64,000 bases of DNA. It comes from a virus (lineage: Duplodnaviria; Caudoviricetes). The position numbers and the translations under genes are program-made. The notes beneath the pieces are model-generated. The model had not been told where the DNA came from. It did not search any database and was given only the letters and a program-made list of their open reading frames with translations. Shown here piece after piece: positions 2,599-60,116 of this stretch. Position 1 is the stretch's first letter. Every line of letters starts with the position of its first letter. The stretch lies in IMG/VR virus record IMGVR_UViG_3300020577_005688, positions 1-64,000 of that record, one strand, 5' to 3'.

Positions 2599-2606
2599 GG
2601 CATAAG
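2599..2606 (+). promoter_or_regulatory. GGYATAAG motif (putative phage promoter)
   Basis: GGCATAAG upstream of the 2657 ORF; the motif recurs before many + strand cassettes. Confidence 0.55.
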
Positions 2607-2656
2607 GACACAATGCGAACAATCACGTTCGCTCTCATCGAATGCGAGGCGGAGAA

Positions 2657-2923
2657 ATGAAGATTGAGAATGCCGACATCTATGAAGCGTCCCCTGACAT
2701 CGACGTGTTCTCTTGGAGCCCAACACCTCAATCAGAGGTCGATGCAGGGAAGCCTCAAGCACCCTCCACTCAGGTTCATCTGTTCTTCAAACTGAGCATT
2801 GGGAAGGTGATGCTTCGGTTCAAAGGACCTGGGACGCTCGATTCTCTGATTGGCGCTCTCATCAAGCATCGAGTGGATGTGTGGGGAGCTCCTCAAGACC
2901 ACAAGACCTGGTTGGCGAAATAA
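2657..2923 (+). CDS. Hypothetical protein
   Basis: ORF in track; start placed at the ATG after GGAGA; stop overlaps the next start (TAATG). Confidence 0.65.
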   Translation: MKIENADIYEASPDIDVFSWSPTPQSEVDAGKPQAPSTQVHLFFKLSIGKVMLRFKGPGTLDSLIGALIKHRVDVWGAPQDHKTWLAK

Positions 2924-3354
2924 TGCTGCTCTACATCTGGGTTCAGCTGAGAGTGAGGTTCGAGTATCTGTTGATGTTTCCCTCGCTCCTTCGAGAGTCT
3001 TTTCGAATCTCCTTCATCTGGGGTGATAACGAACAACTACTCAAGAAGAGAATGGCGGAGTTCACTGCCCGAAAGCTCCTGAAGAAGTGGATTCCCATCC
3101 AAGTCGCGAGCGCCCTCGAATCGATTCGAGAGCAGAAGCCAGTCCCTCGACTCAAAGAGGCTTGGTTCTACATGGTCGGCAAACAGGTCATCTACGAGCT
3201 CATGCATGCGGGCTGGGACCCTCTCAGAGCACATATGCTGATTGACCGTATTGTCCGTGAAGAGGCCCTCAAACAAGAGCCTACGGCAGAGATGAGGGCA
3301 GCCTGGGTAAGGGATGATGGCTCAGAAGGCCTACCCTGGGAAAAAGACGGCTAG
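2923..3354 (+). CDS. Hypothetical protein
   Basis: TAATG coupling to the upstream gene; hydrophobic N-terminus. Confidence 0.65.
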   Translation: MLLYIWVQLRVRFEYLLMFPSLLRESFRISFIWGDNEQLLKKRMAEFTARKLLKKWIPIQVASALESIREQKPVPRLKEAWFYMVGKQVIYELMHAGWDPLRAHMLIDRIVREEALKQEPTAEMRAAWVRDDGSEGLPWEKDG

Positions 3355-3359
3355 AGCCC

Positions 3360-3377
3360 GGTATAAGCCTTTTGAAG
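3360..3377 (+). promoter_or_regulatory. GGYATAAG motif (putative phage promoter)
   Basis: GGTATAAGccTTTTGAAG. Confidence 0.65.
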
Positions 3378-3433
3378 CCAAGGTACTCACGCCTTGCTTC
3401 AACACCCTTCTTGGGTGGAAAAAGGAGAAGCAC

Positions 3434-3625
3434 ATGAACTGGAATGCCATCTGGAATTCGATCAAGCCCAACCTCGTCTTCGCAGGCAAAGTCGCCGCGG
3501 GAACGGTGATCGCCATGGGGACGCAGTCCCTGGTGATCACTGCGAACAACGCCTGGCAGGACTGGCGCGAGGACTCCAAGGCGAAGAAGAAGCTGGAAGA
3601 GAAAGAAGTGAAGCAGGCTGCCTAA
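3434..3625 (+). CDS. Small predicted single-pass membrane protein (63 aa)
   Basis: AAGGAGA RBS, hydrophobic segment, GC3-rich codons, own promoter motif and terminator. Confidence 0.75.
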   Translation: MNWNAIWNSIKPNLVFAGKVAAGTVIAMGTQSLVITANNAWQDWREDSKAKKKLEEKEVKQAA

Positions 3626-3640
3626 GCTGTAAGGCGGCTT

Positions 3641-3682
3641 GAGAGAGCTCGTTCATCCCCCCTGGATGAGCTCTCTCTTTTT
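3641..3682 (+). terminator. Intrinsic terminator
   Basis: GAGAGAGCTC/GAGCTCTCTC stem followed by a T-run. Confidence 0.75.
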
Positions 3683-3712
3683 AGGCTTTGGAGCAATTCC
3701 TCGAATTACGTG

Positions 3713-3730
3713 GTCATAAGCCCTTTGAAG
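3713..3730 (+). promoter_or_regulatory. Promoter motif variant
   Basis: GTCATAAGcccTTTGAAG, near-identical context to the 3360 copy. Confidence 0.6.
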
Positions 3731-3771
3731 TGAAGGCTGGGATTCGCCCGCTTTCTACAAAGGAGATGACA

Positions 3772-4518
3772 ATGCGTTCTTTCATTCTGGCAGTTGTGGT
3801 GCTGATGGGCTGCAACTCGAATGTTGTTCCAGCCTCTGATTCATTCGCTGTCTCTCTCCAAGTGGAGCAGAGCGATGCTGGTGCGTGGCTCATCGATTCT
3901 GATGGAGGCCGCGCTTTTGTCTCGAATGGTCGAGACGGTGTGAAGGGAGAGAAGGGTGACACTGGAGCTCAGGGCGCTCAAGGTGTTCAGGGCATCCAAG
4001 GCCCTCAGGGCGTTCAGGGACAGCAGGGCATTCAAGGTCCTCAAGGACTGACGCCTGCCTCTCCGACTCTCTACTCAACTGATGGTGGAGTCATCGGATA
4101 CGGAATGTACTTGGGCAACAACAACATCCTCGAAACAGTGTTCCTGCCGAGCGAACGTTGTCTGGCCTACGTCGGTTGGGAACCTTCTACAGATGGAGGT
4201 TCTCAAGTTCAACCTATTCCGGACGCCATTCTCTTCGAAGGAACTGCATGCAGTGGAGTTGCGTTTATTCTCACCAATACTCGCTTCTTTCCGAGTGGCT
4301 GCTATCGGGAAGCGAATGATCCGAATGGGCAGATCTTCAAAGCAGTTCAGCCCATCCAGCCTCGTCGATTCTCTGCTGTATCTCGAATGGTTCGTTTCTC
4401 AACTCCAAGCGGGACCACAGTTCAATGCACTCCGTGGAACTCAAATGGAGTGGGTGTTGAAGTGACGTTCGCAACTCTTCCAAAAGTAGAGTTCCCAATC
4501 ACCATCGGTCTTCGTTGA
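3772..4518 (+). CDS. Collagen-like lipoprotein
   Basis: AGGAG RBS; signal peptide with lipobox LMGC; about 14 G-X-Y triplets; Cys-containing C-terminal domain; several DGG/DAG motifs. Confidence 0.8.
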   Translation: MRSFILAVVVLMGCNSNVVPASDSFAVSLQVEQSDAGAWLIDSDGGRAFVSNGRDGVKGEKGDTGAQGAQGVQGIQGPQGVQGQQGIQGPQGLTPASPTLYSTDGGVIGYGMYLGNNNILETVFLPSERCLAYVGWEPSTDGGSQVQPIPDAILFEGTACSGVAFILTNTRFFPSGCYREANDPNGQIFKAVQPIQPRRFSAVSRMVRFSTPSGTTVQCTPWNSNGVGVEVTFATLPKVEFPITIGLR

Positions 4519-4521
4519 AGA

Positions 4522-4552
4522 AAGAGAAACACTCCAAAAGAGTGTTTCTTCT
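4522..4552 (+). terminator. Intrinsic terminator
   Basis: AGAAACACTC/GAGTGTTTCT stem with a T-rich tail. Confidence 0.65.
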
Positions 4553-4578
4553 TACCATTCAGAAGGGCTCTTTATGGT

Positions 4579-4595
4579 GGCATAAGAGCTTTGAG
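4579..4595 (+). promoter_or_regulatory. GGYATAAG motif (putative phage promoter)
   Basis: GGCATAAGagcTTTGAG. Confidence 0.65.
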
Positions 4596-4744
4596 CGACG
4601 TCCTTCGTAGCTTCCAATGTAGAGTTTCCGGAAGTGCCATCTATGTTGGATTTCTTACCTCAGATTGAGGCTGCAATAGGCACATAGAGCGGTGCAAATC
4701 TGTTTCCACTGAAAGCTTTCTTTCACTCCTTGTGAGGACTCAAA

Positions 4745-4974
4745 TGCTCATCAAAGTAACGAACTACTGCTCAATGGGATGCAGCCACTGCATGGAAGAC
4801 TCGACAGTGGCTGGGAAGCATATGACGGATGAGACGTTCGAGAAGGCACTCGAACAGACCATTCGTCTCGAACACGAAGCGTGGTCTGCAGGTGCTCCTC
4901 CATTCGTGTTGTTGAGTGGTGACTCTTGCCCTGTGGTGGTTCTCCTAGAAATAGAGCGAATGGAGCAGGTATAA
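4745..4974 (+). pseudogene. Truncated radical SAM protein fragment
   Basis: ATG after GAGG; TNYCSMGCSHC (CxxxCxxC) then LLSG, but the frame ends where GGEP is expected (~75 aa). Confidence 0.7.
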
Positions 4975-4985
4975 GACGTTAGAGG
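4968..4985 (+). promoter_or_regulatory. GGYATAAG motif (putative phage promoter)
   Basis: GGTATAAGacgTTAGAGG; its TAA is the stop codon of the radical SAM fragment. Confidence 0.6.
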
Positions 4986-5030
4986 TAATCACCTCAATGC
5001 TCTATTTGAGCAACCAAAAAGGAGAGGGAC

Positions 5031-5828
5031 ATGACGGCAACGGAATTCATTCGGAAGTTCTTTGTCGAGAATCCGAAAGCATCGGTCAACGACTGCGCTC
5101 GGGAGATGGACAAGGTGAAGGTCGAGGGAACCTTCGACACTGGTCTCATCAGTCGCATTCGTATGAAGGAGCGGCAGAAGACGATGCCTGCAGCTGCTCC
5201 TGTCATTCCAGATAAGGGGAAGCCGCTCTTCCAACCTCCAATCGTGAGGAAGAAAGAGTGGCGAGATGGTCAGACATGGTGGAAAGACACCAAACCAAAG
5301 GAGGTGGAGAAGGTGGAGGAAAAGGTCGAAGCTCCCAAGGAAGTAACTCCTCCAGAGTCCGAGAGCATCACGACGAAGAAGCGTCGCTTCGTGAACTCCT
5401 ACGTGGAGAAGCTCACCTCAGAGGAGTTGGCAAAGCAGACTTGCCACTCAGTGCAGGAGGCTGTGAAGAAAGAGTTCACTACTGGACTCGACTTCAAGTA
5501 CGTGGCTGAGACTCTTCGCATCGCAAAGGAGATGGCAAACATCCCCATGAAGCGAGCCACTGTGAAGAAGAAGGCCCCTGCTCAGAAGACTGCAAAGTCC
5601 GTCTCGAAGAAGGTCACAAAGACCAAGGACCAGACAAAGCAGTCCTTCGATCGAATTGTCTCTTGGGGTTCGAACAACTTCAAGATTCTTCCAGAGGAGC
5701 GAGTGCGCTCGTTCGTTGGAGATCTCCTGATGGGCACTGGAGAGGATGCAACGATGACGGACCCGGCAACCATTCGAGTGTGGAAGCCCGTTCCATCCAA
5801 GATTCGACTGCAGATCGACATCGGCTGA
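5031..5828 (+). CDS. Lys-rich hypothetical protein (possible DNA binding)
   Basis: AAGGAG RBS; 265-aa ORF with phage-like codon usage. Confidence 0.8.
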   Translation: MTATEFIRKFFVENPKASVNDCAREMDKVKVEGTFDTGLISRIRMKERQKTMPAAAPVIPDKGKPLFQPPIVRKKEWRDGQTWWKDTKPKEVEKVEEKVEAPKEVTPPESESITTKKRRFVNSYVEKLTSEELAKQTCHSVQEAVKKEFTTGLDFKYVAETLRIAKEMANIPMKRATVKKKAPAQKTAKSVSKKVTKTKDQTKQSFDRIVSWGSNNFKILPEERVRSFVGDLLMGTGEDATMTDPATIRVWKPVPSKIRLQIDIG

Positions 5829-5947
5829 TTCAACACCCCACCCTTGACCAGGGCTTACCACTTGCACACGTTGTGCATGGGGGTGTTGGGGAGAACTTGC
5901 ATTGTGCAAGTTCTTCTTTAGCTCTCAGCAAAGATGAGACAGTCCAT

Positions 5948-5965
5948 GGCATAAGAGTATTGAAG
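5948..5965 (+). promoter_or_regulatory. GGYATAAG motif (putative phage promoter)
   Basis: GGCATAAGagtATTGAAG. Confidence 0.65.
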
Positions 5966-6130
5966 AAAAGAATTTGGCCAGTTCGCTTTTCTTCATCTAT
6001 GGATTGGTGAACCTCTGACTGGACTCTTTGGTTCCACCCCTCCTTCCAACGAGCACAGAAGACTCACCACTCGTGGATGTTGTTCGAACTGGTAGCCGGG
6101 TCTTGCACGCACCAAGACCCGGCTTTTTTT
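5962..6130 (+). ncRNA. Putative ~165-nt structured small RNA (rod hairpin with CCUCCU loop plus terminator)
   Basis: Bounded by the promoter motif and a strong terminator; nested helices 5978-5985/6085-6092, 5994-6001/6072-6079, 6005-6010/6064-6069 and 6028-6031/6046-6049; no credible ORF. Confidence 0.6.
6095..6130 (+). terminator. Intrinsic terminator
   Basis: GCCGGGTCTTG/CAAGACCCGGC followed by T7. Confidence 0.9.
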
Positions 6131-6181
6131 CATCTTAGAGCCATCCAGGGCTCACTCAACCAACACACAGAAAGGACACTG

Positions 6182-6298
6182 ATGAAGAGACTCATCGACT
6201 GGGTCAAGAGGGAAATTGCTTGGTGGCGATTTCATCGAGACATGGCCGAGAAAGCAGTTCATCTGCAACCTGCAGTTCAAAGGAGTTCGAAGAGATAA
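6182..6298 (+). CDS. Small hypothetical protein (38 aa)
   Basis: AAGGA RBS before ATG 6182. Confidence 0.5.
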   Translation: MKRLIDWVKREIAWWRFHRDMAEKAVHLQPAVQRSSKR

Positions 6299-6329
6299 GT
6301 AAAATGTAGGAAGAAATTCGTCTTCCTAC

Positions 6330-6833
6330 GTGCGTAGTTTCACAGAGGGGAGTGCGTTTGTGCGTATCGAAGGACCAAAAGCGGATTTGATTGTTTCGGG
6401 GATCATCAATCTCATTCAGAGCATGACGTCGACGCTGCAGGAGGTGGGAAGTGCAGCGAGGGCGTACGCGAAGAAGACTGAGTGGGAGTACGAGATCATC
6501 CATCGGCGTTCTCCTGTGACGGACGAGGAGATCGCCAAGGACGATGCAATCATGAAGATGGAACACGACGCTCGTGAGCGGGAGGCCCGAGTCCGCCTCC
6601 TGGAGGTCCAGGCTCGCGAGGAGTTGGCCAAAGCCCAAAAGGCTGAGGCCATCGTTCGGCTCAAGACAGCATCAGTGCGGCAGAACCAGCAGCGTCAGGC
6701 GCAGAGCCAGCAGTCGCGTCCGAAGTTGCCGCCGTTCAATGAAGTCATGAAGGGGGAAACGGTGAAGAAGCAAGGAGAGGGGCAACTCACCCACAGTCTG
6801 GGTGAAAAGCTGAAGAGCGACCAGCCTTCCTGA
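6330..6833 (+). CDS. Coiled-coil hypothetical protein
   Basis: ORF followed by a hairpin at 6843-6865; start uncertain. Confidence 0.7.
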   Translation: MRSFTEGSAFVRIEGPKADLIVSGIINLIQSMTSTLQEVGSAARAYAKKTEWEYEIIHRRSPVTDEEIAKDDAIMKMEHDAREREARVRLLEVQAREELAKAQKAEAIVRLKTASVRQNQQRQAQSQQSRPKLPPFNEVMKGETVKKQGEGQLTHSLGEKLKSDQPS

Positions 6834-7013
6834 TAAGGAAGGAGGACGACCCTTCGGGGTCGTCCTATCATTAACTTTCAGCTTCGAACGACTTGCTCAA
6901 TCAACAGTGGCTTATCTGTCATGAGAGCCAAATACACCACACCGCATGCTTCGCAGAGGAAATGAGAAGTCTGCTCTGTTCGAGGCGTGCTCTTGGTCAT
7001 CTTCTTCAAGTTC

Positions 7014-7544
7014 TCATCGACTCTGACCAGTGTCATGTGTTTGCACTTCGTCGCCAAGAGCTGCCTGCCTTTCAAAGAGCTCCATCAGGTCCTGTGGTGA
7101 GACCTCACTCGCAACAAGGTCCCTTGCCCATGGTACTCCACTGAGTTGAAGAACAGAGACAGCCATCTCCGAGCAGAACATAGCCTTCGAGCTCTGAGTG
7201 GGGTTACGCCACCGACGGCTCAGAATACGGCCCAGGATGACCTTGGCCATGCCCAACAAGCCTCCGAAGTCGTACGCACTCCCAAGCCACGTAGCGGCCC
7301 ATTTGAGGCCCTCCTGGAGGTTCTGGCTCGTTGACCAGAGGGCGACCACCTTGTTGTGCTTCTTGAAGCGCTCAAACGGAATGAGACGGAAGCCGAGCTC
7401 ATGGGCCTCCATCACCATGTCCATCTCGAAGTCCTGGTCATAGTACTTAAACCAGGCATGACTTGTTCTACTCTTCGTAATCTTTCGAACAAGCCACGAG
7501 ATGGGATTGAAGTAGCTTGGGGTGCTGAAGCCGATTTGAGTCAT
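7014..7544 (-). CDS. Permuted papain-like NlpC/P60 (YiiX/YebB-like) amidase/peptidase
   Basis: His-before-Cys order: SRTSHAW, YDF and MFCSEM motifs. Confidence 0.8.
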   Translation of the reverse strand: MTQIGFSTPSYFNPISWLVRKITKSRTSHAWFKYYDQDFEMDMVMEAHELGFRLIPFERFKKHNKVVALWSTSQNLQEGLKWAATWLGSAYDFGGLLGMAKVILGRILSRRWRNPTQSSKAMFCSEMAVSVLQLSGVPWARDLVASEVSPQDLMELFERQAALGDEVQTHDTGQSR

Positions 7545-8115: not shown

Positions 8116-8149
8116 TTCACTGTCCTCAGAAATCTAACAACCCGTGTCG

Positions 8150-8168
8150 GGCATAAGAAGGTATTGAG
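8150..8168 (+). promoter_or_regulatory. GGYATAAG motif (putative phage promoter)
   Basis: GGCATAAGaaggtATTGAG in a divergent intergenic gap. Confidence 0.6.
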
Positions 8169-8200
8169 AGGGAGTCTTACCCCTTCCTCGGAGAAATGCA

Positions 8201-8386
8201 ATGCCTAGAAACTACTATCGACTTGAGGTGCGTCTTGAGACCGAACTGAAGACCCGTCTTGAGAGACTGAGACGAGAATCAGAGTCCTACACTAAGAAGA
8301 AGGTCTCAATGAATGCCTTAGTCTCTCAAATCATTGAATCGTATCTCGAACGTCTTCCGAAAGAACGTCTTGAAGAAGAAAAGTGA
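8201..8386 (+). CDS. Arc/ribbon-helix-helix DNA-binding protein
   Basis: Pattern LEVRL..ELK.RL...SMNALV..II. Confidence 0.75.
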   Translation: MPRNYYRLEVRLETELKTRLERLRRESESYTKKKVSMNALVSQIIESYLERLPKERLEEEK

Positions 8387-41090: not shown

Positions 41091-41792
41091 GTGGGAAGCC
41101 TTTTCTATTCTTTCCAAGAGGCTGCGAACAGCCTTGGGTGCTCGAAGCGCACGATTCACAACTACATCAAACAGGGTTACCTGCGAAAGTCAAACCAAGA
41201 AGGGAAGGTAGTCCTTTTCAGGGAGGACGTCGAGCAGCTTGCCGCAGAGACGGGCGTAAACCTCCCACCGTTCAACCGGAAGAATTTCTTCTTGTTGTTG
41301 CGGAGAGTTGAGAAACTCGAACAGGACATGCTGGTGGCAAGGAGAAGACTGGACATTCAGGCTGACCCTCTGAGGCCCTCTGCACAGGAGGCGGCTCTAT
41401 TGATGAGAGAAGCGGAGCATGCGTTTGTTCGTGGAACGTGGTCAGAGCCAGAGATGGAGCAATGGGTGTCTGTCTTTGAGCGCCTCGATGAGACAGCCCT
41501 TGAGTCAATGAAGAAACATCTTGGGAGTCTCAATCCCTATGAACCCTTCTTCAAGCTCGTGATGGCCATGATGCAGAGTGTCGCTTCGATTGAAAACTTC
41601 GAAACATCTCTGCCTGCGCAGCTCATGCACAAGAAGTTGGATGAAGGACGTAGGAAGATGAGGGAGTGCATCTTCATGTGGCTCAAGGTCTCCTCGCCAC
41701 TCAATGCCGATGAGGTCGTTCAGTCTCTGGATACAGAGAAGGAAAAGCTCTTCAAGAAGCTCAAAGCAAATAAACCAAGTCCCACGGCATAA
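41091..41792 (+). CDS. MerR/excisionase-type HTH DNA-binding protein
   Basis: YSFQEAANSLGCSKRTIHNYIKQGYL; AGGAGG RBS. Confidence 0.85.
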   Translation: MGSLFYSFQEAANSLGCSKRTIHNYIKQGYLRKSNQEGKVVLFREDVEQLAAETGVNLPPFNRKNFFLLLRRVEKLEQDMLVARRRLDIQADPLRPSAQEAALLMREAEHAFVRGTWSEPEMEQWVSVFERLDETALESMKKHLGSLNPYEPFFKLVMAMMQSVASIENFETSLPAQLMHKKLDEGRRKMRECIFMWLKVSSPLNADEVVQSLDTEKEKLFKKLKANKPSPTA

Positions 41793-41802
41793 GAGTTTTG
41801 AA
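41786..41802 (+). promoter_or_regulatory. GGYATAAG motif (putative phage promoter)
   Basis: GGCATAAGagTTTTGAA, overlapping the upstream stop codon. Confidence 0.65.
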
Positions 41803-42283: not shown

Positions 42284-42316
42284 CATTTCCCCGAGAGGAG
42301 CTTCACAGCTCCTCGG

Positions 42317-42359
42317 AGAGTGCGCACGTTTCCCTCCTTTACCGTGCGCACTCTTTTTT
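42317..42359 (+). terminator. Intrinsic (probably bidirectional) terminator
   Basis: AGAGTGCGCACG/CGTGCGCACTCT stem plus T-run. Confidence 0.8.
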
Positions 42360-44151
42360 AGGCCTCAGAGTCCAATCCTGACGTCTTCGCAGTAGGAGAA
42401 AGAATCTCGGGTCGCGGGTACTTGAGCATCGAAGCCAATGTGCAGAGCAAGATAGAGTGGAACGTGTCGTCTGTAGCGTCCGGGGTCTTGGAGTACTGAA
42501 TCTGTCGAAGCTGCTCATTGTATTCACTGAAGATGTTGAGCAGGTCCTTACCGAACGGATCCTCAAACTGCTCCCATCGAGGGAATCTGAAGAAGTCCCT
42601 CCTCTTGATAGCAGTGAAGATGTCGGTCATCACTTCAGTGCGGTGTACGAGGAAACGATGGAGCTTCTCCTCCCACTTCACCTTCTGACCTGGGTTTGAG
42701 TACTGATACTTGACGATACGGTTCTTGCTGAACATACGAGCCAGCGCGTCATTTCGATCGAAACCACCACCGTAGTCGACACCAATCAATTTGACGTCCC
42801 ACCGTCTGATGAGCTCTCCAATCAGCTCCAACTGAACGGGTGGTTCCATCTCCTGACCTTCGAAACGGTGAACGTAGAAGATAGTAAATCTGCCGTTCAC
42901 ATACGTTCCAAGAGAAATGATGGTGTACGTGTTCTCACCAGTTCCCCAGTCGATTCCAGCAAAGATGTCCATCCCACCAGACATCTTGTTCTTCAATGCC
43001 TGCATACCCTCAGCAGTCATCAAGAGCTCTGGGTCACAGTTGTCCATCACATCTTGTTGAGTAAGGGGCCTCATACCGGAGTCGCAGGCTTCTCCGAGAA
43101 CCTCATTGAAGAACTTTGGTTGAGAGTAGGTTGTGTAGGAGTCTAGAATCTCACTCCACTTCAACCAAGGAACCATCAACTGTGGGATCCGAAAGCCTTC
43201 GTACGGCTCAGTGAGCTTCTCTTTGACTGAGGCGTTCATCATTGCCCAACGAGACTCATTCCGCATTGGGTGGATGATTTCACCGCACTTGGCACAGATA
43301 AGACCCTTCTTCCCGATGTTCTGCTCTCCAAGAATGTTCCAATACCAAGTGGAAGGGTCTGATGGGACTCCATGGTGGTCGCAAGGAACAACCCACTCAT
43401 TCTGGGTTGAGTACTTCGTCCAGTAGTACTCAATCGAGTTATCGAAGGACTTCGGTGTTCCAGAGTAGATGAAGATCTTGAACGGAGAGTGAGATGCACA
43501 CTGTTCAATGACCGGGATGTTCTCTGTGATGATGTCCTGCAGCTCGTCAAGCAGGACCATGTCAGCTGGGATACCACGCGTTCTATCTGCGTTGTGGTAC
43601 GCGTACCTGAGAGTCACTTGGCTTCGATTGATGAACTTCTTCTGGAAGACGTTGTCGCTGAGCTTCGACGTCGTCCAGGCCTTCAGTACGTCTGAGGTCT
43701 CGATGGGCTCCTTCAGACGGTCCTGTGAGAAGGTCTTTGTTTGCTGGTTGGTGGGAGACACATACAAAACATTGAACGCGTTGATGATGCAACAGTAGGA
43801 GAGAGTCTTGTTACCGAGCAGGGTAGACTTCTCGACCTGACGACCGCACTTGTAGAGAGTACGCTTGGATGGGGTGTCGTAAGGAAGTCGAAGATACCTG
43901 CGGCCCTCGAACGAGAAGGGCAAGAACTTCTGGGACTTCTTGTCCGGAACTTTGACGGCAAACTCTACGAACTGAGACGGGGTTACTGAGAGAAGGGTCG
44001 ATTGCTTGAGCGCGAGCTCATCCTCATCTAGGAAGCCTTCGTACACTTCCTTTTCGTAGTCCCACTCTTCCTTGAGCTCAGGCTCTCCGCTCTCAGAAAT
44101 GACGACGTTGGCGTTGTTTCTGAAGTACTCTTCGCTTGAGACGACAGTCAT
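42358..44151 (-). CDS. terL: Terminase large subunit
   Basis: GRQVEKST Walker A variant, LLDE, SGTP, nuclease AGIDWG and DD.FHS. Confidence 0.9.
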   Translation of the reverse strand: MTVVSSEEYFRNNANVVISESGEPELKEEWDYEKEVYEGFLDEDELALKQSTLLSVTPSQFVEFAVKVPDKKSQKFLPFSFEGRRYLRLPYDTPSKRTLYKCGRQVEKSTLLGNKTLSYCCIINAFNVLYVSPTNQQTKTFSQDRLKEPIETSDVLKAWTTSKLSDNVFQKKFINRSQVTLRYAYHNADRTRGIPADMVLLDELQDIITENIPVIEQCASHSPFKIFIYSGTPKSFDNSIEYYWTKYSTQNEWVVPCDHHGVPSDPSTWYWNILGEQNIGKKGLICAKCGEIIHPMRNESRWAMMNASVKEKLTEPYEGFRIPQLMVPWLKWSEILDSYTTYSQPKFFNEVLGEACDSGMRPLTQQDVMDNCDPELLMTAEGMQALKNKMSGGMDIFAGIDWGTGENTYTIISLGTYVNGRFTIFYVHRFEGQEMEPPVQLELIGELIRRWDVKLIGVDYGGGFDRNDALARMFSKNRIVKYQYSNPGQKVKWEEKLHRFLVHRTEVMTDIFTAIKRRDFFRFPRWEQFEDPFGKDLLNIFSEYNEQLRQIQYSKTPDATDDTFHSILLCTLASMLKYPRPEILSPTAKTSGLDSEA

Positions 44152-44160
44152 TCTAGCTCC

Positions 44161-44472
44161 ATGAGTGAACTACCTCCACCGCTCGCCTGGCTTCCGGGCT
44201 TCGCAAACTCCCTATCTGGAGCTATTGATACTCCGGTCCAGATCGAATGTACACAGAGTGTAAATCCTTTGGTGTACATCGTGAAGTTCCGATTCGGGGA
44301 AAACGTCACTGGGAAACGTATGATGTTGGTGTGGAACCTCTACCAACAGTATGCCGCAAAAAATGACGCTGTCCCTCAAGGAAAGGTCGAATCAGAGGGA
44401 AAGACGCTTACGACCTCTATCATCATCAAAAGGAAAAGGGGTCTGCCAAGAAATGAGCATCCGCTGGCATAA
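44161..44472 (+). CDS. Hypothetical protein
   Basis: 103-aa ORF divergent from terL. Confidence 0.6.
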   Translation: MSELPPPLAWLPGFANSLSGAIDTPVQIECTQSVNPLVYIVKFRFGENVTGKRMMLVWNLYQQYAAKNDAVPQGKVESEGKTLTTSIIIKRKRGLPRNEHPLA

Positions 44473-44473
44473 G
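44466..44473 (+). promoter_or_regulatory. GGYATAAG motif (putative phage promoter)
   Basis: GGCATAAG overlapping the upstream stop, before RNase HII. Confidence 0.55.
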
Positions 44474-44494
44474 AAGTCAGAGGGGAAAACTTTC

Positions 44495-51954: not shown

Positions 51955-52629
51955 TCAAGGAGAGTTATACTGTTTAATGGTTTTTTGTTCTTGGAGGTCC
52001 GTCAGTCTTCTCCTTGCGTGTCTTGAGAGACGAGTACCCGACCCATATGGAATTCGAGCGGGCATTAGTGACGCTTCACCAATACCCTCTCTATAGTGCT
52101 TCATATGAGCCCTAACTGCCTCATTTCCGGGAGGGAGGGTCGCTAGACGATTGTGCTCCCGAAAAATAACATCTGGGCTTCTATGACCGTAATGGGCGGC
52201 TCCAATTCGTCCACGAACGGAAGATTCGTCAAGTTCGTGACCTTTAACAACTGCATGAAGCATCTTTCTTTGGTCCGCAGGGACCTTCGGAGCATTGCCG
52301 AGTCCTCCGAGAGTTGAGCTGTGCATTTGCTTTTGAATAGAACCACTGCCCGGAAAAATAGCGGGTCGGTCTCTGACGAGCTTCGAGACGGGCTGGCTCT
52401 CTACTGCCGATCGAACGTGCTCACCTGCACCCGGAGAAATCAAGTTGGCACTTCTAACGGCGTCACCAACGAGTCGACTTTTATTTGGGGAGGCAGAGAG
52501 GAATGGCTGTACTCGTGCAGACGCTTTTGGAAGCTGAATTCTCTTGGCAAGAGACAAAACCTTAGAGGCCTGATCAGCACCAAAAGCAATCTTTACTAGC
52601 TCATCAGAGAAAGACTCAAAGGAGATCAT
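51955..52629 (-). CDS. Basic protein with FSDELVKIA leader (putative capsid cargo)
   Basis: TAATG coupling to the RNAP stop; GHELDE/GH/EH residues in the C-terminal half. Confidence 0.75.
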   Translation of the reverse strand: MISFESFSDELVKIAFGADQASKVLSLAKRIQLPKASARVQPFLSASPNKSRLVGDAVRSANLISPGAGEHVRSAVESQPVSKLVRDRPAIFPGSGSIQKQMHSSTLGGLGNAPKVPADQRKMLHAVVKGHELDESSVRGRIGAAHYGHRSPDVIFREHNRLATLPPGNEAVRAHMKHYREGIGEASLMPARIPYGSGTRLSRHARRRLTDLQEQKTIKQYNSP

Positions 52630-55600
52630 TAGTAGTGGCCCTTTGGCTTTGAAGGATGGCCCTTCCCGAACTCTGCACCAAACGCGACACCTGGGATTGG
52701 GTGTTTTCCGTGGATGTCTGACTTCCATCCCTGAGATGCCGCCTGTTGCAGAGTACTGTGGAGCTCACGATAGTTGAGACGTGCCATCCAGTCTGACGTT
52801 CCGGTCAGCGGCAACTGAGAGATGCTCTTCAGGATAGGTTCGTGAGTAATTGGGCGCTTGTCCTTTGGAAGACCTCTGTTGTGTTCATCCACGATAGAGG
52901 TTGGGACGATGTCGCCGTGGAGGAAATCACTTGTTCCTGGGTCCTTTACCTTTGTGAGATTCGTCAAAGCTCGAACCACTACCTCAACGTTCCTCTTTCT
53001 AACTCCTTCCTTCTCGTACAGACCACCATACATCTCATTTGTGAGATGGTTTTGGACGGTGTGCATGTCTGTGAGTGGTAGGAGGTGATGAGGATTGATG
53101 AATCCGTGAGAGACTGGTGTTCCTTTCTTCACCTCATCCCCAACCTTCAGGTCTGTATTCACCAAGTCCTTTGGAACGAAGTGGCGCTCGTCTCCGATGA
53201 AAATATCGACGCCACCAACACTGTCCCTCTTGATGTTCGTAATCTTCCCAGAAGTGCGAGCAAGAGTGGCCGAGTTCTTCAACTTCGCTGGCATGTTGAG
53301 AGCGTTACGAAGCCGAGTCAACCGGTCTACTGACATTGCTCCTCGACCAGTAGCAACACCACCAGTGTGGAACGCGTCCATCGCCATCTGAACTGCAGGC
53401 TCCGAGAGCGCCTGTCCAGCGAGAACACCGATGTTCGTTCCGACATCGTGGAGTTTCCCACTCTCATTCAATCCGAAGCACTTCGCACAGATTCCTTCTC
53501 CGTGCTGGCACTTCAGTGGAGAACGCACCAAGACCTTGTCGATCTTTGAGTTCTTGAGTCGGTTGACGACTTCTGGCGTGACAAGTGTTCCAGCTTTGAT
53601 TTCATCTCCTTCCTTCAAACGATAAGACTTCGAGAGGAATCGGTCATGGATGTCTTTGTGGACAACATCCATCAGAACTCCATGGCTCGTCTTACAGTCT
53701 GGAGATGAAACAATCGTAGCAATCGTTGAGTTGATGATGTCCTTGGAGACAACACCAGGCTCAGACGTTCCAAGAACACGCTGCAGCGTTCCTTTTCGAG
53801 CTCCATGCTGGGCGAGCCAGTAGTCACCGATGTCCAGACCCTCTGCGTAGTTCTTGAGAATGGGGGTTGGGATGATGTTGTTTTGAGAGTCTTGAACAAG
53901 CATCGGGGCAGCAATCATCTGGCGAAGTTGCTCTGCCTTTCCACGTGCTCCTGACACGACCATGTCTGCAAGTCGATTCTGGCCAGCAGGCAACTTTGCG
54001 GCGTGCTCCAACTGTTCGGTCGCCTTTTGGTAGATGTCGATGATGCGTTTGTTCTGTTCATCTTTGTCTTTGACTGTGTTCTTGATTGCAGTCACTTGCT
54101 TCTGCGCATCACCAAGAATCTTGTGGCGCTGAGGAAGGGTGGCAAGGTCCTTGAGTCCAAAAGAGAAACCGAGCTTGTACGCCCACTCATTGCCGAGGTC
54201 TTTGAGTTGGTCGACTACTGAAGCGAAGTCTCTTGTGTGATTCTTTGCGAGGGGCGTGATGATTTGAGAGTTCAGAGACTTCTTATCGATAGTCCAGAGC
54301 GGATTGTGGAGAATGTCCTTGTTCAGATGGAAGTCGCGAGGCATCCTCGACTCAAGCAGAAGACGACCGAAGGTAGTCTCCTTCCCACCAATCTTCACGA
54401 CGTCGGTAGGCTTCACCTCTCCTCGGTCGACTGCCTTGTTGAGCTCCAGAGGTGTCTGGAACGACTTAGAGGTTTTCTCGCCCCATCGCGAGATGAGGTG
54501 CAGACCGAGCATTGAATCTTGCGTCGGTGCATACATGACTGCACCAGTAGTGGGAGAGAAGAGGTTCTTCGATGGGAACATCTTCTTTGCTTCCTCGACA
54601 GCTTCTCTTGTCAGAGGAACAGTACCTGCCATTGTATTGTGGACGATGACACCGCCAAATACGGCAAAAACATGGCTCTCGTCATCAACTTCGATGTCGA
54701 TCATCCGATCGTCATACGGCACTTCTTCGATGGTCTTGACTTCAAAACCGCGTGCGCTTTGTGATGAACGAGAATCCTTGCGCATGGTCTCATACTCCTC
54801 ACGAGCCTGACGCAACAGATCTCCTTTCTTGCCGGGGATCCGGTAGTCGAGAAGTTTAATGGCTTCTTTACCAAACGACAGAATGTAGCAAGGTCCGCAA
54901 GCATGGTCCCTGTCTCGGACAGAGAAAGGCAGTCCAAGCATATTCGCAATCAGAGCCATATCATCTCTCAAGGTTTTACTCTTTGACCACGTTCGAACAA
55001 GCCAACTTCCAGAACGAGTCACTTCGACAGATCCGTCCGATTGAATATACCCAGCGAGCATACCCTTCAAAAATTCCTCGCCCCTATACATGAGCGGGCC
55101 CATCACTGCCTTGCCTGTGCAGTAACGACCACAGAACGCAAGGAACTGCCTCGCCAGACCCACATCCGAGATCTGAAAATAACCGTGGTGAGAATCGGTG
55201 ACGTGGACGTTGAACTCTCTCTTCCACAGACCGATGAGGTACTCACGCTCAATAACAGGCTTGCAGGCGATCGAGATTCGTCCACCTCCTTGAGGAGGTG
55301 GACGAACTTCTGCTGATCCGTCACCAAGGAAGTTACCGAAGATGACACCATTTTCGTAAGAGTACGTCTCACTAGAGAACGAGGGTTCGATGCGCTGATG
55401 ATCGAGTTCAGTTCCAATCTTCATATCACCGGGCTTCATTTCCCTACGCCCGACCATCAGTGAATGGTCTTCCGAAGCAATGAACGAGAGACCATTCTTG
55501 AGAGTGACTCGGAACTTCTTCTTATTCTCGACCTTGTGGAACGAGATGTTCTTGATCGGACGCCAGCCGTTGTAGGTGTAGGCTTCGATGTTCTTGACAG

Positions 55601-58600
55601 CAGAGACCCAATTCCCATCGCCTGCACCGAGAACTTCGATCAGTCTTCGACCAGTGACTTGCTGAACTGCGCCACTGAAACGGAGCGGAATCGGGGTGTC
55701 CAAGTCGATAGAGTCCCCGTCGAAGTCGGCGTTGTACCCACCAGTCACGAGAGGGTGAATCTGAATTGCCTTTCCCTCAATGAGCTTTGGTGTGAAAGCC
55801 ATGACAGAGAACTTGTGGAGAGCCGGGTCTCGCTTCAAGAGAAGAGGACGGTCTCGTACAACACGCTCAAGAGCGTCGAACGCAGACTTAGAACCTTTAC
55901 GCATCTCCTGCTGAGCTTCGAGAGGCTTGAAGCCTGTCTTTCCGAGTTCAGCAACAACGAAGGGCTTGTACAACTCCATTGCGGCACCCTTCGGGATGCC
56001 GACCTCATCAATCCCAAGACGAGGCTCTGGAACAATCGTTGAGCGAATTGAGAGGTTCTGACGCCTCTTCACGAGTCTGGATTGGAAATACGCATCCTTC
56101 GGTTGCTCTCCATCGCCGCCACCGATGATGTCGAGGATGCCCTTCAAGGCGCGTTTGGCACCTGCAGGAGAGTCCATGTCATAACCGACAGAACCTCCCA
56201 CTGATTGAAGTGCCTTCACACTCTCGTACAACTGTGAGCGCAGAGGCATTCTGACTTGCTCTGGGAATACCTTCGGGTCGGCCTCCACAAGCTTGTTATT
56301 CAGAATCGCAATGTTCTTGTACAGACCGTTCAAAGAAGATGTTTGAAGATCTCCCTTTGGAGTTACTGTTGCTGGTCGGAAAGCTGGAGGGAGCACAGGA
56401 ACGTACTTCATGATGTACGCTTCGTGCGGTTTCAGTCCTGCTTCGTCGACTGCAAGAAGGTACTTCATCTTCTTGTTCGCTCTGTCGAGGTCCGCTCCAG
56501 TGAGAATCGGGAGACGCTCCTTGAGCGTCTTAATCTCGGCCTTGACGTCAACCTTCTTCAGGGCTTCAAGAACTGCCTCACCACCAGTCTTACCGTGGAG
56601 CTTCGTCTCTCCATTCATGACTGACTCAAACTCCTTCATCTTCATTCCAAGAAGAGAAGGGATCGGTCCAGGGCGATGATTCGAACCCACGAAGATGGGA
56701 TTGGGGATTGGCTCGGTCAACTTGATGAATCCCCACTTGGAGCCACTCAAGCCTCCAGTTGCGACCGGGTCAAAGAGGCCTCCCTTCTCCTCCTTCAAGT
56801 CCTTTGCCCTGAGAAGGAGGTGTCCCTTCGTGATTTCTCCACGAGCCCCACCCGCCATCTCAACGACTTTCTTGTCTGTGAGCGGAGTCAGTTGAAGAAT
56901 TGACCCCTTCTTCTCCACATTGACGCCGAGTCCGTTCAACAATCCAACAAACTTCTGGTAGCTGAATGGAGCTTTTGGAGGAGGAGGCTCGTATCCTTCT
57001 TGAATCATGTTCCAGAAGGTAGAGTCCTGCATGTCGGACTTGTACGTCGCCATTTCACGAATGTTGTGGCGAGCGTTGTGCGCCAAGAGAGAATAGAGAT
57101 CGAGGGCACCGATACCCTGACCTCCTCGCTCTCCACCTTTCGTAGGAGCTCTATCGATGTCGTAAGTAAGAGGACGGCCATTGATGTCTGTTCCTCCTCC
57201 TCGAACTGTGAGCTTCTTCTCGACTTGGTGCTTGAGTTTGAGAAGGTGTTGAGGACCAACGAGGACGGACCCAAGAACCTTGCTCGGATTCATAGGGTCG
57301 AACACGCTCTCCTCATCAGAGATACCGTGCTTCTTCAATTCTTGGAGGACCTTTTCTCGGTTGTCTGAGTTTGGGCCTTCGAAGTTATTGACGATGTACG
57401 TCTTCCCTGTCTTCTCTGCAATCTTACCAGCTGCAGTCTCAAGTACCTGACCGACGTTGATTCTCGTAGGTACGCCAGTCGGGTTCAGAAGAACTTCGAG
57501 AGGACGCTTTTCCCCCTTCTCGTCCTTCGTGAAAGGCATCTCATGGTCGGGGAGAATCATCGTCACGATTCCCTTGTTTCCGTGACGACCGGAGAGCTTG
57601 TCTCCGATAACAACAGGCTCGACTGTCTTTACGTAGACTTTTGCACCTCTGCCCGAGGGGTCTTTGACAATCTTGACTACCTCACCCTGGTGGTCTTCGT
57701 CCCAAACAAGTGACTTATCCTTGTAAGGTTGGAATGCTCGCTTTCCGAGAGCAGCAAGGGCACTTCCCTGCCTTGAGGCGAGGTTCTTCCCAACTGCAGC
57801 AATCAACACCTGGCCTGGGTTTACCTTCGACCCAACGCGGATGATGCCGTCATCGTCCAACATCCCGAGCTGTTCTTTGGTCAGTTGATTGGATCGAGTG
57901 GCAGCGAACGCAACGAACTTATTCTTCGAGATGACGTCGTTGTCTGGGTCAAACTCCACAGACTTCTTGTGGAGGTGCTCTGAGCTCAGTTTCTTAGAAG
58001 CGGTCTCAGAAATAACAATACCGTCTTCGTAGTTGTAACCCTTGTACGGGATGTACCCCACTCGGAGATTTGAACCGAGCGCGAGAGCTCCTCCCTTTGT
58101 GAAGTTCGAGTCCGCGATAACTTGGCCCTGAGAGACCTTGTCGCCGACCTTTACGACGGCCTCAGAGTGCATCATTCCCTTTGGGTCGTTGAGGGGGAAG
58201 TGATTGTACAGATGTACTTGGTGGTTCTTCTTTCCGTCATTGATGACGATGTGGTCGTCTTTGACTGTCTTCACCGTTCCAGAGATGGGGGCTCGATGTG
58301 AGCTGAACCCACCCAGGACTTTCTCGAAAGTCATTGAAGGGTCGGCGTGATCTGTCTTCGATTGAACGAGAGGAGCTTCTCGATACTTCAGACTGATGGC
58401 TTGCTCCATCTGCTTATCTGCCATCGAGACTCTGTTGCCTTGGTTCGATGGGAGGAAAGGAATGAGGTTCGATGCCATGTCGAACATGCCCTTCGATGAG
58501 GGCATAACAAAGCCAGCTTCCGAGAACGGCCGAACTTCAATCGACCCTCCAGGGAGCTTTACTTTCACCATGTTCGAGATTGGGACTGGCTTTCCCTTCA

Positions 58601-59969
58601 CCCATCGAACTTGGTCTGGAAGGACTGCTGTGACGTCATGGAACTTAGGAGCTGTCATGTACTGAATTCGATTGCCCTTCAAATCGAACACAGGCGTCTC
58701 AAGTTCCTTGCCGTTCTTTCGAGCACCCATGCCGAGGTGGAGCGTGATGCCGGTCCTCTCAGATTCCGGGGTGTGCATCGGATCCAGGAATCCAAAGTGG
58801 CTTGAGTTTACGACTCTCATTTCGTCGGTCAGGGAGTGGTCCTTCTTGATACCTCCCAAGTCCGAAGCCATCAGGGTGGTCTTCCTGTGGCCCGACATCA
58901 TCTGGATTGGATTGGTCTGGTCCGGTCGTTCAGTGAGAGAACCTCCCTTCGTAAAGAACTCACGAATTGGCCGGGCAAACAGATCGGCTGAAATGACCTC
59001 GGATACGGAGGTCTTCTCCTTCAGGTCAATCGTGTTCTTTAGCTTCCCTTTGATTGTCTTTGAGGCGCGTTCAATCTTCTCTGGAAGGAAGTCCTCGACT
59101 GATACAATCTCCTTGAAGGCAAGAGAGTCACGGTCATCTGGCTGAAGCGTTCCTCTTGAGACGCCGAGAATCTTGTTGGCAGCAATCTGAAGGACCTGTC
59201 CGTCAACCTTGGTTGCCTCTCTTCCGAGGGTAATCTTCGTCGTGTCTGGGCGGAGGACGGTCTTGTCAAAGAAGTCGTAGACGTACTTCCCGTAGCCCGC
59301 AACATCTGTGGGTTCCGGAACGTTCTCAAAAGAGGTCTTCTTGAAGAACGTTTGAAGTGTCTTGAGAGTCTTCTCTTCATTCTTGGGCTTGTTCGCAAGG
59401 AAGATCTCCTTGCCCCAATCCTTCTCCATCTGGTCATCTGAAACGCCCATCGACTTCAGAATGGGGTAGAGCGGAATGTGAGCTTGACCCTTCTTCAGGA
59501 AGAAGCGCTTCTTCTCTCGTTCGAGCTTGATGGAGAAACGATTACCAGCGGGGCCTCGAACGAGGTTGAACTCAGATTCGAGATCTCCGTTGTCTTGGAT
59601 TCGAGCGTAGACGCCAGACTTCAAACGAAACAAATGGTCGACCTGATACTCATTTCCATCGACAATGAATCCAAATCGATTGGTGAGTTTTGGAAGACGA
59701 GCCAACGTCATTGTCTTCGAATCGACGACCTTGCCTGTGGCCTTGTCGATGAGAGAGACGTTTGCCTTGACTGGAACACCCCAGGTGCGATCCAGGTCTT
59801 TCGCCTGTGCCTGAGATTGGATGTCTTCTGGATTCAGCTTGTCGTCGACCCAGACTTTATCCAGCTGTAGCCGACGAGACTTACCCTCATAGGGAAAGTA
59901 AGCAGAGATTGAAGAGACGATGTTGTTCTTCAAAACATCGAAGGAACCTTCGGGAGTCAGGTTTTCCAC
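52629..59969 (-). CDS. rpoBC: Fused beta-beta' multisubunit DNA-directed RNA polymerase (intein-containing)
   Basis: Beta motifs TPE, GYNYEDGI and GDKLSGRHGNKG; beta' motifs RDPALH, NADFDGD, SGARG, HGARKG and FHTGG, all in one ORF; GTG start after GAGG. Confidence 0.95.
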   Translation of the reverse strand: MENLTPEGSFDVLKNNIVSSISAYFPYEGKSRRLQLDKVWVDDKLNPEDIQSQAQAKDLDRTWGVPVKANVSLIDKATGKVVDSKTMTLARLPKLTNRFGFIVDGNEYQVDHLFRLKSGVYARIQDNGDLESEFNLVRGPAGNRFSIKLEREKKRFFLKKGQAHIPLYPILKSMGVSDDQMEKDWGKEIFLANKPKNEEKTLKTLQTFFKKTSFENVPEPTDVAGYGKYVYDFFDKTVLRPDTTKITLGREATKVDGQVLQIAANKILGVSRGTLQPDDRDSLAFKEIVSVEDFLPEKIERASKTIKGKLKNTIDLKEKTSVSEVISADLFARPIREFFTKGGSLTERPDQTNPIQMMSGHRKTTLMASDLGGIKKDHSLTDEMRVVNSSHFGFLDPMHTPESERTGITLHLGMGARKNGKELETPVFDLKGNRIQYMTAPKFHDVTAVLPDQVRWVKGKPVPISNMVKVKLPGGSIEVRPFSEAGFVMPSSKGMFDMASNLIPFLPSNQGNRVSMADKQMEQAISLKYREAPLVQSKTDHADPSMTFEKVLGGFSSHRAPISGTVKTVKDDHIVINDGKKNHQVHLYNHFPLNDPKGMMHSEAVVKVGDKVSQGQVIADSNFTKGGALALGSNLRVGYIPYKGYNYEDGIVISETASKKLSSEHLHKKSVEFDPDNDVISKNKFVAFAATRSNQLTKEQLGMLDDDGIIRVGSKVNPGQVLIAAVGKNLASRQGSALAALGKRAFQPYKDKSLVWDEDHQGEVVKIVKDPSGRGAKVYVKTVEPVVIGDKLSGRHGNKGIVTMILPDHEMPFTKDEKGEKRPLEVLLNPTGVPTRINVGQVLETAAGKIAEKTGKTYIVNNFEGPNSDNREKVLQELKKHGISDEESVFDPMNPSKVLGSVLVGPQHLLKLKHQVEKKLTVRGGGTDINGRPLTYDIDRAPTKGGERGGQGIGALDLYSLLAHNARHNIREMATYKSDMQDSTFWNMIQEGYEPPPPKAPFSYQKFVGLLNGLGVNVEKKGSILQLTPLTDKKVVEMAGGARGEITKGHLLLRAKDLKEEKGGLFDPVATGGLSGSKWGFIKLTEPIPNPIFVGSNHRPGPIPSLLGMKMKEFESVMNGETKLHGKTGGEAVLEALKKVDVKAEIKTLKERLPILTGADLDRANKKMKYLLAVDEAGLKPHEAYIMKYVPVLPPAFRPATVTPKGDLQTSSLNGLYKNIAILNNKLVEADPKVFPEQVRMPLRSQLYESVKALQSVGGSVGYDMDSPAGAKRALKGILDIIGGGDGEQPKDAYFQSRLVKRRQNLSIRSTIVPEPRLGIDEVGIPKGAAMELYKPFVVAELGKTGFKPLEAQQEMRKGSKSAFDALERVVRDRPLLLKRDPALHKFSVMAFTPKLIEGKAIQIHPLVTGGYNADFDGDSIDLDTPIPLRFSGAVQQVTGRRLIEVLGAGDGNWVSAVKNIEAYTYNGWRPIKNISFHKVENKKKFRVTLKNGLSFIASEDHSLMVGRREMKPGDMKIGTELDHQRIEPSFSSETYSYENGVIFGNFLGDGSAEVRPPPQGGGRISIACKPVIEREYLIGLWKREFNVHVTDSHHGYFQISDVGLARQFLAFCGRYCTGKAVMGPLMYRGEEFLKGMLAGYIQSDGSVEVTRSGSWLVRTWSKSKTLRDDMALIANMLGLPFSVRDRDHACGPCYILSFGKEAIKLLDYRIPGKKGDLLRQAREEYETMRKDSRSSQSARGFEVKTIEEVPYDDRMIDIEVDDESHVFAVFGGVIVHNTMAGTVPLTREAVEEAKKMFPSKNLFSPTTGAVMYAPTQDSMLGLHLISRWGEKTSKSFQTPLELNKAVDRGEVKPTDVVKIGGKETTFGRLLLESRMPRDFHLNKDILHNPLWTIDKKSLNSQIITPLAKNHTRDFASVVDQLKDLGNEWAYKLGFSFGLKDLATLPQRHKILGDAQKQVTAIKNTVKDKDEQNKRIIDIYQKATEQLEHAAKLPAGQNRLADMVVSGARGKAEQLRQMIAAPMLVQDSQNNIIPTPILKNYAEGLDIGDYWLAQHGARKGTLQRVLGTSEPGVVSKDIINSTIATIVSSPDCKTSHGVLMDVVHKDIHDRFLSKSYRLKEGDEIKAGTLVTPEVVNRLKNSKIDKVLVRSPLKCQHGEGICAKCFGLNESGKLHDVGTNIGVLAGQALSEPAVQMAMDAFHTGGVATGRGAMSVDRLTRLRNALNMPAKLKNSATLARTSGKITNIKRDSVGGVDIFIGDERHFVPKDLVNTDLKVGDEVKKGTPVSHGFINPHHLLPLTDMHTVQNHLTNEMYGGLYEKEGVRKRNVEVVVRALTNLTKVKDPGTSDFLHGDIVPTSIVDEHNRGLPKDKRPITHEPILKSISQLPLTGTSDWMARLNYRELHSTLQQAASQGWKSDIHGKHPIPGVAFGAEFGKGHPSKPKGHY
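54636..55712 (-). mobile_element. Intein (359 aa) with LAGLIDADG homing endonuclease
   Basis: Starts with Ser right after NADFDGD; SEDH block B; FLGDGS and AGYIQSDGS LAGLIDADG motifs; ends HN followed by Thr. Confidence 0.92.
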
Positions 59970-60108
59970 GTCTTCCTCTTTCGGCCACACTGCGGAGTGG
60001 TTTATGGCGTACCCGGCTCTACCCCACCGCAGAGAGGGTCATCGAGCCTTAGCATCCCACATTACATGCTTCTCGAAAGGAAGGTCAACAAAGTCGACGA
60101 AGTGTCGG

Positions 60109-60116
60109 GGTATAAG
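60109..60116 (+). promoter_or_regulatory. GGYATAAG motif (putative phage promoter)
   Basis: GGTATAAG upstream of the + strand Zn-finger cluster. Confidence 0.55.

Follow-up and report, generated by a model that had tools for sequence, protein, structure and literature searches.

Motif, polarity and placement

The window analyzed here is the first 64 kb of the 141,350-bp viral record IMGVR_UViG_3300020577_005688, which is ~75% complete and comes from an uncultured phage of ~200 kb. On the + strand of this record lie helicases, UDG, DnaB, PolA, a RecA-like protein, ribonucleotide reductase (RNR), ligase, RNase HII, a helix-turn-helix (HTH) protein and many small genes. On the - strand lie the terminase, virion genes, a single-chain RNA polymerase (RNAP) and one sigma70-family gene. 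Our subject is a short + strand motif, GG(C/T)ATAAG, which a first-pass annotation had read as a phage-specific early or middle promoter used by the phage RNAP. A full-text literature search on the motif words returned primers and the like, and no paper describing the motif was found.

The window contains nine copies of GGYATAAG (at 2599, 3360, 4579, 4968, 5948, 8150, 41786, 44466 and 60109), all on the + strand and all as first annotated. Dinucleotide shuffles (n = 100) give an expectation of 0.69, and none of the 100 reached nine. Over the whole record, there are 14 sense and no antisense copies, compared with 3 and 3 for the reversed control word. Nine of the 14 are intergenic, two overlap only an upstream stop codon, two fall in weak open reading frames (ORFs) and one is genic. 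Note that, with ORFs called anew, only 9% of the record is intergenic.

Relatives were collected via the RNAP, yielding 17 viral contigs with RNAP identities of 54 to 87%. A megablast search of 12 kb against phage records gave no match, and no relatives were found with a 265-aa early protein as query. Five RNAP-related genomes, fetched whole, form a six-genome set together with the record, and 11% of the DNA in this set is intergenic. Across it we counted 81 sense and 2 antisense copies of GGYATAAG, with 69 of the sense copies intergenic and a median of ~50 nt to the next + start. An unbiased k-mer scan of the six genomes returned GGCATAAG as the most intergenic-enriched 8-mer (48 copies, none of the reverse complement), and expectation maximization (EM) on 317 upstream regions of + strand genes had the same word as its top motif. 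The k-mer scan also recovered GGGATAAG, with 30 sense and 0 antisense copies. We therefore widened the motif to GGBATAAG: C and T at the third base stand as first described, but G is used there too, and the original wording was too narrow. In this wider form the six genomes hold 111 sense and 2 antisense copies, 97 of the 111 being intergenic. The strand bias recurs in nine of nine further RNAP-related genomes scanned, always on the strand opposite the RNAP gene. The intergenic check that the first-pass annotation had proposed for the record and its relatives thus found enrichment in both placement and orientation.

To score individual sites, we used a matrix built from the five other genomes only, leaving this record out, with a cut-off of at least 10 bits. 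In the record it detected 20 sites in sense orientation and none in antisense. The 11 matches in the window are identical with the 11 sites of the first-pass annotation, including its variants at 3713 and, marginally, at 6292. All are promoter candidates on the + strand:

2578..2613, +, promoter, core GGCATAAG at 2599-2606; 19.2 bits; 51 nt to the ATG of gene 2657-2923
3339..3374, +, promoter, core GGTATAAG at 3360-3367; 21.3 bits; serves a conserved small ORF with likely start ATG 3434
3692..3727, +, promoter variant, core GTCATAAG at 3713-3720; 17.0 bits; upstream box perfect (gCAAtt); serves 3772-4518
4558..4593, +, promoter, core GGCATAAG at 4579-4586; 22.3 bits; serves small ORF 4732/4744-4974
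4947..4982, +, promoter, core GGTATAAG at 4968-4975; 22.8 bits; its TAA stops ORF 4732-4974; serves 5031-5828
5927..5962, +, promoter, core GGCATAAG at 5948-5955; 28.0 bits; serves small ORF 6077-6298
6271..6306, +, marginal variant, core GAGATAAG at 6292-6299; 10.2 bits; serves 6360-6833
8129..8164, +, promoter, core GGCATAAG at 8150-8157; 10.1 bits; in a divergent gap; serves 8201-8386 and 8483-8995
41765..41800, +, promoter, core GGCATAAG at 41786-41793; 31.5 bits, the highest score of the record; serves 41852-42283
44445..44480, +, promoter, core GGCATAAG at 44466-44473; 23.4 bits; its TAA is the stop codon of 44161-44472; serves the RNase HII gene
60088..60123, +, promoter, core GGTATAAG at 60109-60116; 24.9 bits; in the divergent gap beside the RNAP gene

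The motif opens five of the seven internal + blocks of the record. Only two divergent gaps are without it, those of 55 nt before 41091 and of 9 nt before 44161, and in the six genomes divergent gaps house 35 of the 97 intergenic GGBATAAG sites. As first noted, the TAA of the motif doubles in four cases as the stop codon of the upstream ORF (ending at 4974, 6298, 41792 and 44472); at 41786, this is the stop of the HTH gene 41091-41792. The sites had been described as preceding a gene or an RNA. Genes do follow them, but an RNA of a known family is not supported, as an Rfam scan of the window found no RNA family. The long gaps after 3360, 4579 and 5948 instead contain small ORFs conserved in a relative. 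Behind the 3360 site, conservation in relative G001 begins only at about residue 36 of the ORF, and ATG 3434 has a ribosome-binding site; ORF 4732/4744-4974 is 75% identical in the same relative. ORF 8201, conserved in four relatives, follows the 8150 site, which scores only 10.1 bits because its upstream box is offset. The gene served from 44466 (44495-45100) matches RNase_HII at 1.6e-35. The 60109 promoter serves a small ORF from 60184 as well as 60361-61591, and relative G002 carries GGGATAAG at the orthologous site. The marginal 6292 variant overlaps a sigma70-like TTCAAA-18-TAAAAT (scan match 6276-6305).

Two-box architecture

On sequence grounds, the motif is the -10 part of a sigma-type two-box promoter. 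In a logo of the 97 intergenic sites, an upstream box that was not used in selecting them has C at -19 in 67, A at -18 in 75 and A at -17 in 87 sites, followed by R and W. This CAA(A/G)(A/T) box is separated from BATAAG by 16 to 17 nt, and T+12 and G+14 are conserved in the start region. An exact CAA at -19 to -17 occurs in 46 of the 93 sites in ++ and divergent gaps, against a background of 1.5%. Sites with no - strand gene upstream have it in 26 of 58 cases, so the box is equally present there. The consensus can be written as g-CAA-(A/G)-(A/T), 14 to 15 nt, GG-B-ATAAG, 4 to 6 nt, T-n-G. In the gap upstream of the RNAP gene, the only islands conserved among the six genomes are the box, the core and TTG, the flanks having diverged. 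The first-pass annotation was right that a TTGACA-type -35 box is absent, but it missed the conserved upstream box; the TTGA(A/G) that it saw downstream of many copies follows 6 of the 11 sites and corresponds to the start-region signal.

Single-substitution counts of intergenic copies indicate how strictly each position is kept. At the second position of the hexamer, A is invariant as expected of the sigma70 family (94 copies, against 4, 9 and 1), and the second box lies within the 16 to 18 nt upstream of the -10 hexamer that is typical of that family. G holds the last position in 94 copies, compared with 1 copy for T, 4 for A and 2 for C. More variation is seen at the second motif base (G 94, T 16, A 10), which explains the variants GTCATAAG and GAGATAAG; GTBATAAG, with 16 sense and 2 antisense intergenic copies, is a minor variant. 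We predict that transcription starts 6 to 8 nt past the final G. The two-box geometry points to recognition via a phage sigma70-family factor, which the first-pass annotation had not mentioned.

Candidate polymerase and sigma factor

The genes that could read such a promoter lie on the opposite strand:

52629..59969, -, single-chain beta-beta' RNAP of 2446 aa, the candidate core enzyme (Pfam Rpb2_6 at 6.6e-60; Rpb1 domains 1-5)
54636..55712, -, LAGLIDADG intein of 359 aa within the RNAP (Pfam LAGLIDADG_3, Intein_splicing)
record 112814-113656 (L011:8817-9656), outside the window, -, sigma70-family factor with regions 2-4

The catalytic NADFDGD of the RNAP is intact (residue 1413). The intein, absent from four relatives, sits directly after it, beginning with Ser and ending with His-Asn; the residue after the intein is Thr. 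RNAP matches are longer still in contigs L027 and L028. The only RNAP type found is multisubunit, and no single-subunit RNAP was found. The sigma factor is conserved in all six genomes, is an ortholog of Gp10 of Salmonella phage Arash (E = 2e-20), and resembles RpoD, RpoS and FliA, with a full-length but weak match to FliA_WhiG. Its N terminus carries a conserved tag, W-x-L-x-K-I/L-S/A-A-A (W13, L15, K17, A20, A21), ahead of a variable linker. This tag resembles an FxDELxKIA leader of five - strand virion-module proteins (e.g., 35934-36206 and 51955-52629), which suggests that tag and leaders are a shared capsid-targeting peptide.

The only cultured relatives are Arash (OQ632216.1) and Vibrio phages D69, D148 and D181, with RNAPs 32 to 33% identical to that of the record. 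All four follow this layout too, with the non-structural genes on the strand opposite the virion, RNAP and sigma genes. Their RNAP is split (in Arash into gp206, 32 to 33% identical, and gp216, 26%) and they have a second sigma, gp196, whereas the record has a single chain, an intein and one sigma factor found. They share with it the orthologous RNAP and Gp10 sigma, the CAA-type box and a start region with TG. In Arash, GGTATAAG occurs 30 to 1 on the non-structural strand, and RNR, kinase, helicase and tRNA units have their annotated starts 27 to 45 nt downstream of the copies; these sites have a CCAwAA box and a GTGTA start region. GGBATAAG itself shows no enrichment in D69 (10 to 10); it is G(T/C)TATAAG that is enriched there, 27 to 2, and its sites keep the same box and start signal. 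The third motif base is a fixed T in Arash and D69 but C, G or T in the clade of this record. With an xATAAG core, a CAA-type box, a TG start, a position opposite the RNAP strand, and orthologous RNAP and Gp10 all present, the predicted promoter is conserved as far as Arash. Virion mass spectrometry of Arash detected RNAP beta (with the top spectral count), beta' and sigma Gp10 in the particles (PMC10585845); promoters are not mentioned in that paper (0 occurrences).

We consider it likely that the motif belongs to a promoter private to this phage lineage, one that heads non-structural units and whose most likely reader is the phage sigma together with the phage's own beta-beta' RNAP, probably capsid-borne. 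The reading of the first-pass annotation, a phage-specific early or middle promoter, is supported by position, de novo recovery, architecture, conservation, terminators, specificity and the relatives. Pairing the motif with the phage RNAP is plausible, though by indirect evidence: its co-conservation with RNAP and sigma, and the Arash virion proteomics (PMC10585845). The genes for RNAP and sigma are both on the virion strand and Arash particles contain both proteins, so the holoenzyme probably travels in the capsid. The sigma factor (record 112814-113656), bound to the single-chain RNAP, would recognize the promoter, and a capsid-delivered holoenzyme would start these units on injection. The promoter would fire rightward ahead of small early genes, helicases, DNA polymerase, RNR, ligase, RNase HII and tRNA arrays, and hairpin-TTTTAG(C/G) terminators close the units that it heads. 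We propose only tentatively the stronger form of this model, in which an all-phage holoenzyme (the alpha-less beta-beta' enzyme plus sigma), delivered by the capsid, would alone initiate at GGBATAAG within the first minutes, independently of the host polymerase.

Several points weigh against this reading. The motif, its architecture, its placement and its conservation are observed, but we infer which sigma and core read it, its timing and its start site. Packaging in the virion is known only for Arash, whose RNAP is 32 to 33% identical, and the RNAP of this phage does not have the FxDELxKIA leader that its neighbors carry. We searched for an alpha subunit and found none. No homolog of Arash gp196 was found in the six genomes, including three complete and two further relatives; because the record is ~75% complete, a second sigma could sit in its missing part. 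The + genes 41091 and 44161 have no GGBATAAG upstream. Further, the RNAP gene itself is preceded (59970-60108, - strand) by a conserved, canonical-looking TTGACC, 16 nt, TGTAAT. Hence, the host polymerase may transcribe the gene so that the enzyme is made early in infection, in which case the motif would mark middle promoters.

Among the alternatives, it is unlikely that the phage sigma works by appropriating the host RNAP core, as in phiEco32, SPO1 and T4, while the phage RNAP serves other promoters. Phage sigmas do normally partner the host core (PMC8948821, PMC13282480), this one retains regions 2-4 like RpoD, RpoS and FliA, and no alpha was found in the phage. However, a phage core enzyme accompanies the promoter in every genome, sigma and core are both in Arash particles, and a full phage beta-beta' leaves no evident need of the host core. 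The promoter is also constant across Salmonella, probably Vibrio and freshwater hosts, in phages of 45 to 63% G+C (the Vibrio host is taken from the phage name, and the database entry of that phage lists no host). We regard as improbable an ordinary extended -10 host promoter read by the host sigma70 holoenzyme, even though YATAAG agrees with TATAAT at four to five of six positions and two boxes with a 16- to 17-nt spacer are sigma70 geometry. Sigma70 flips T-7, one of two such bases, into pockets. In the motif, 94 intergenic copies have G at the end of the -10 hexamer and one has T, which argues against a housekeeping sigma70 site. CAA(A/G)(A/T) stands in place of TTGACA and GG in place of TG, and a sigma70 consensus scan covering 2000-10500 missed all ten strong sites. 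Sites with canonical TTGACx, 17 nt, TAnnnT favor the other strand by 9 to 1 over the motif strand, and exact conservation across hosts would be unexpected for host-type promoters.

A host alternative sigma of the FliA/sigma28 type as the reader seems to us barely credible. The consensus of that class is TAAA, 15 nt, GCCGATAA; an xAAA box, the spacing and an ATAA core are common to both, and the phage sigma is a full-length, weak FliA_WhiG match. But GGB rather than CCG precedes ATAA here, the final G is invariant, reliance on a non-essential host motility sigma over many hosts is unlikely, and the phage owns a sigma of that very architecture. It is also very improbable that the motif is not a promoter at all, being instead an RNA processing site, a regulator binding site or part of a terminator. 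Four window copies overlap the stop codon of the upstream ORF, and some copies lie 30 to 40 nt after terminator hairpins, both of which would suit such a role. Yet 35 of the 97 sites head blocks in divergent gaps, where there is no same-strand upstream transcript to process, and a second box at fixed distance plus a start-region signal fit initiation. Downstream hairpins are likewise not enriched: the 60 nt that begin at the motif fold with a mean energy of -13.2 kcal/mol, compared with -12.9 kcal/mol in random windows.

Known systems provide partial parallels. As in phiEco32 (gp36) and Salmonella phage 7-11, a phage sigma70-family factor and a private consensus before a gene class occur together (PMC8948821), but phages of that type have no RNAP of their own and their sigma is not known in the virion, whereas a complete phage core co-occurs here. 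In phiKZ and AR9, N4 (vRNAP) and phi14:2 (gp66), the polymerase gene likewise lies among virion genes (PMC7598289; 10.1101/2020.03.07.982082). For the Arash enzyme, carriage in the particle is shown and it is proposed to transcribe the first genes. In phiKZ and AR9 the enzyme is split and lacks a sigma homolog, unlike the single chain plus sigma of this phage. N4 uses a hairpin promoter and a single-subunit enzyme, whereas the promoter here is of the two-box sigma type with no enrichment of hairpins. For the early transcripts of phi14:2 gp66 no motif was found, in contrast to the defined motif here. Bacterial extended -10 (TGnTATAAT) and FliA promoters resemble ours in the ~16 to 17 nt between the boxes, in a conserved pair of bases just before the -10 hexamer, in the ATAA core and in a predicted purine start ~7 nt downstream; the sigma70 extended -10 differs in the GG for TG, G for last T and CAA(A/G)(A/T) for TTGACA already described.

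Other models were tried and rejected. An N4-like downstream hairpin as part of the signal fails for lack of enrichment. The crAss-like gp66 is a poor model because phi14:2 has no known early motif and this phage has a genuine beta-beta' enzyme. 'Moraphages' (PMC12619734) were dismissed as the lineage because they are without an RNAP. A T7-type promoter is excluded by the two boxes with an unconserved spacer, rather than a contiguous ~20-bp block, and by the absence of a single-subunit RNAP among the enzymes found. A T4-type late promoter (TATAAATA, no -35) does not fit an upstream box and non-structural genes. TTAGC words upstream of some sites, considered as a - strand late promoter or UP element, are actually the tails of hairpin terminators.

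Reviews describe phage multisubunit RNAPs as without sigma homologs and with unusual promoter recognition (PMC7824862, PMC13282480), and jumbo phages that encode an RNAP are said in reviews to have no sigma. Unlike these, the present lineage unites a bacterial-type core, a true sigma70-family factor and a sharp two-box promoter. If the stronger form of our model is true, this would be the first virion RNAP shown with a true sigma factor and a classical two-box promoter. Since the promoter deviates where sigma70 reads strictest (G for the last T), the lineage offers a compact polymerase-sigma-promoter set for studies of sigma re-tuning, and the conservation of the motif in a cultured Salmonella phage makes the hypothesis directly testable at the bench. 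With the motif as a guide, many uncultured phages of ~200 kb can also have their transcription units annotated, and orthogonal expression parts might be derived from it.

Terminators, opposite-strand signals and minor features

Hairpin-TTTTAG(C/G) terminators end + blocks at 3679, 42356, 61603, 88039 and 140658. Those in the window are:

3641..3685, +, intrinsic terminator, hairpin + TTTTTAGG; -24.6 kcal/mol; immediately precedes the 3713 promoter
42314..42362, +, terminator, hairpin + TTTTAGG; -22.8 kcal/mol; closes the + island 41091-42283
61561..61609, +, terminator, hairpin + TTTTAGC; closes the + island 60184-61591

The AG(C/G) past the T-run of these terminators is conserved and recurs in the relatives and in Arash. 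TTTTAG(C/G) may be a private signal paired with the promoter.

A search for a common promoter word of the - strand genes (k-mer, EM) yielded nothing beyond weak CCTyAA-like signals and a handful of canonical TTGACx...TACACT sites. Besides the site before the RNAP gene, TTGACC, 18 nt, TACACT occurs on the - strand at record 68407-68694, before gene 66766-68406, and the orthologous site is kept in five genomes. The TTGAC of these candidate - strand promoters overlaps the GTCAA upstream box of the divergent + promoter, with base pairs in common. Structural-strand genes of Arash have a (C)TAAAATA word 25 to 40 nt before the ATG (e.g., gp185, gp204, gp212, gp216, gp218 and gp241). This word is T4-late-like and abuts the reverse complement of GGTATAAG in divergent gaps. 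The same strand-biased TAAAATA-type word occurs in D69, and no clear counterpart was found in the clade of this record.

One genic copy of GGTATAAG, at record 85582 within 85302-85760, is kept at the orthologous position in five genomes, ~185 to 194 nt before the next gene (294 nt by the G001 gene call). It may serve as an internal promoter, or it may be kept only through coding constraint. Of the two + genes that start 9 to 55 nt from a - strand gene, 41091-41792 is HTH/excisionase-like and 44161-44472 encodes a conserved 103-aa protein. The first frame after the 60109 promoter is the small ORF 60184-60282 (+; MFQEDLTNSILGQILYWLEKEK...), which is conserved in the six-genome DNA alignment and was missed by the gene calls. 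The product of 3772-4518 (+) has collagen-type Gly-X-Y repeats (Pfam), and many like stretches occur in relative G002.

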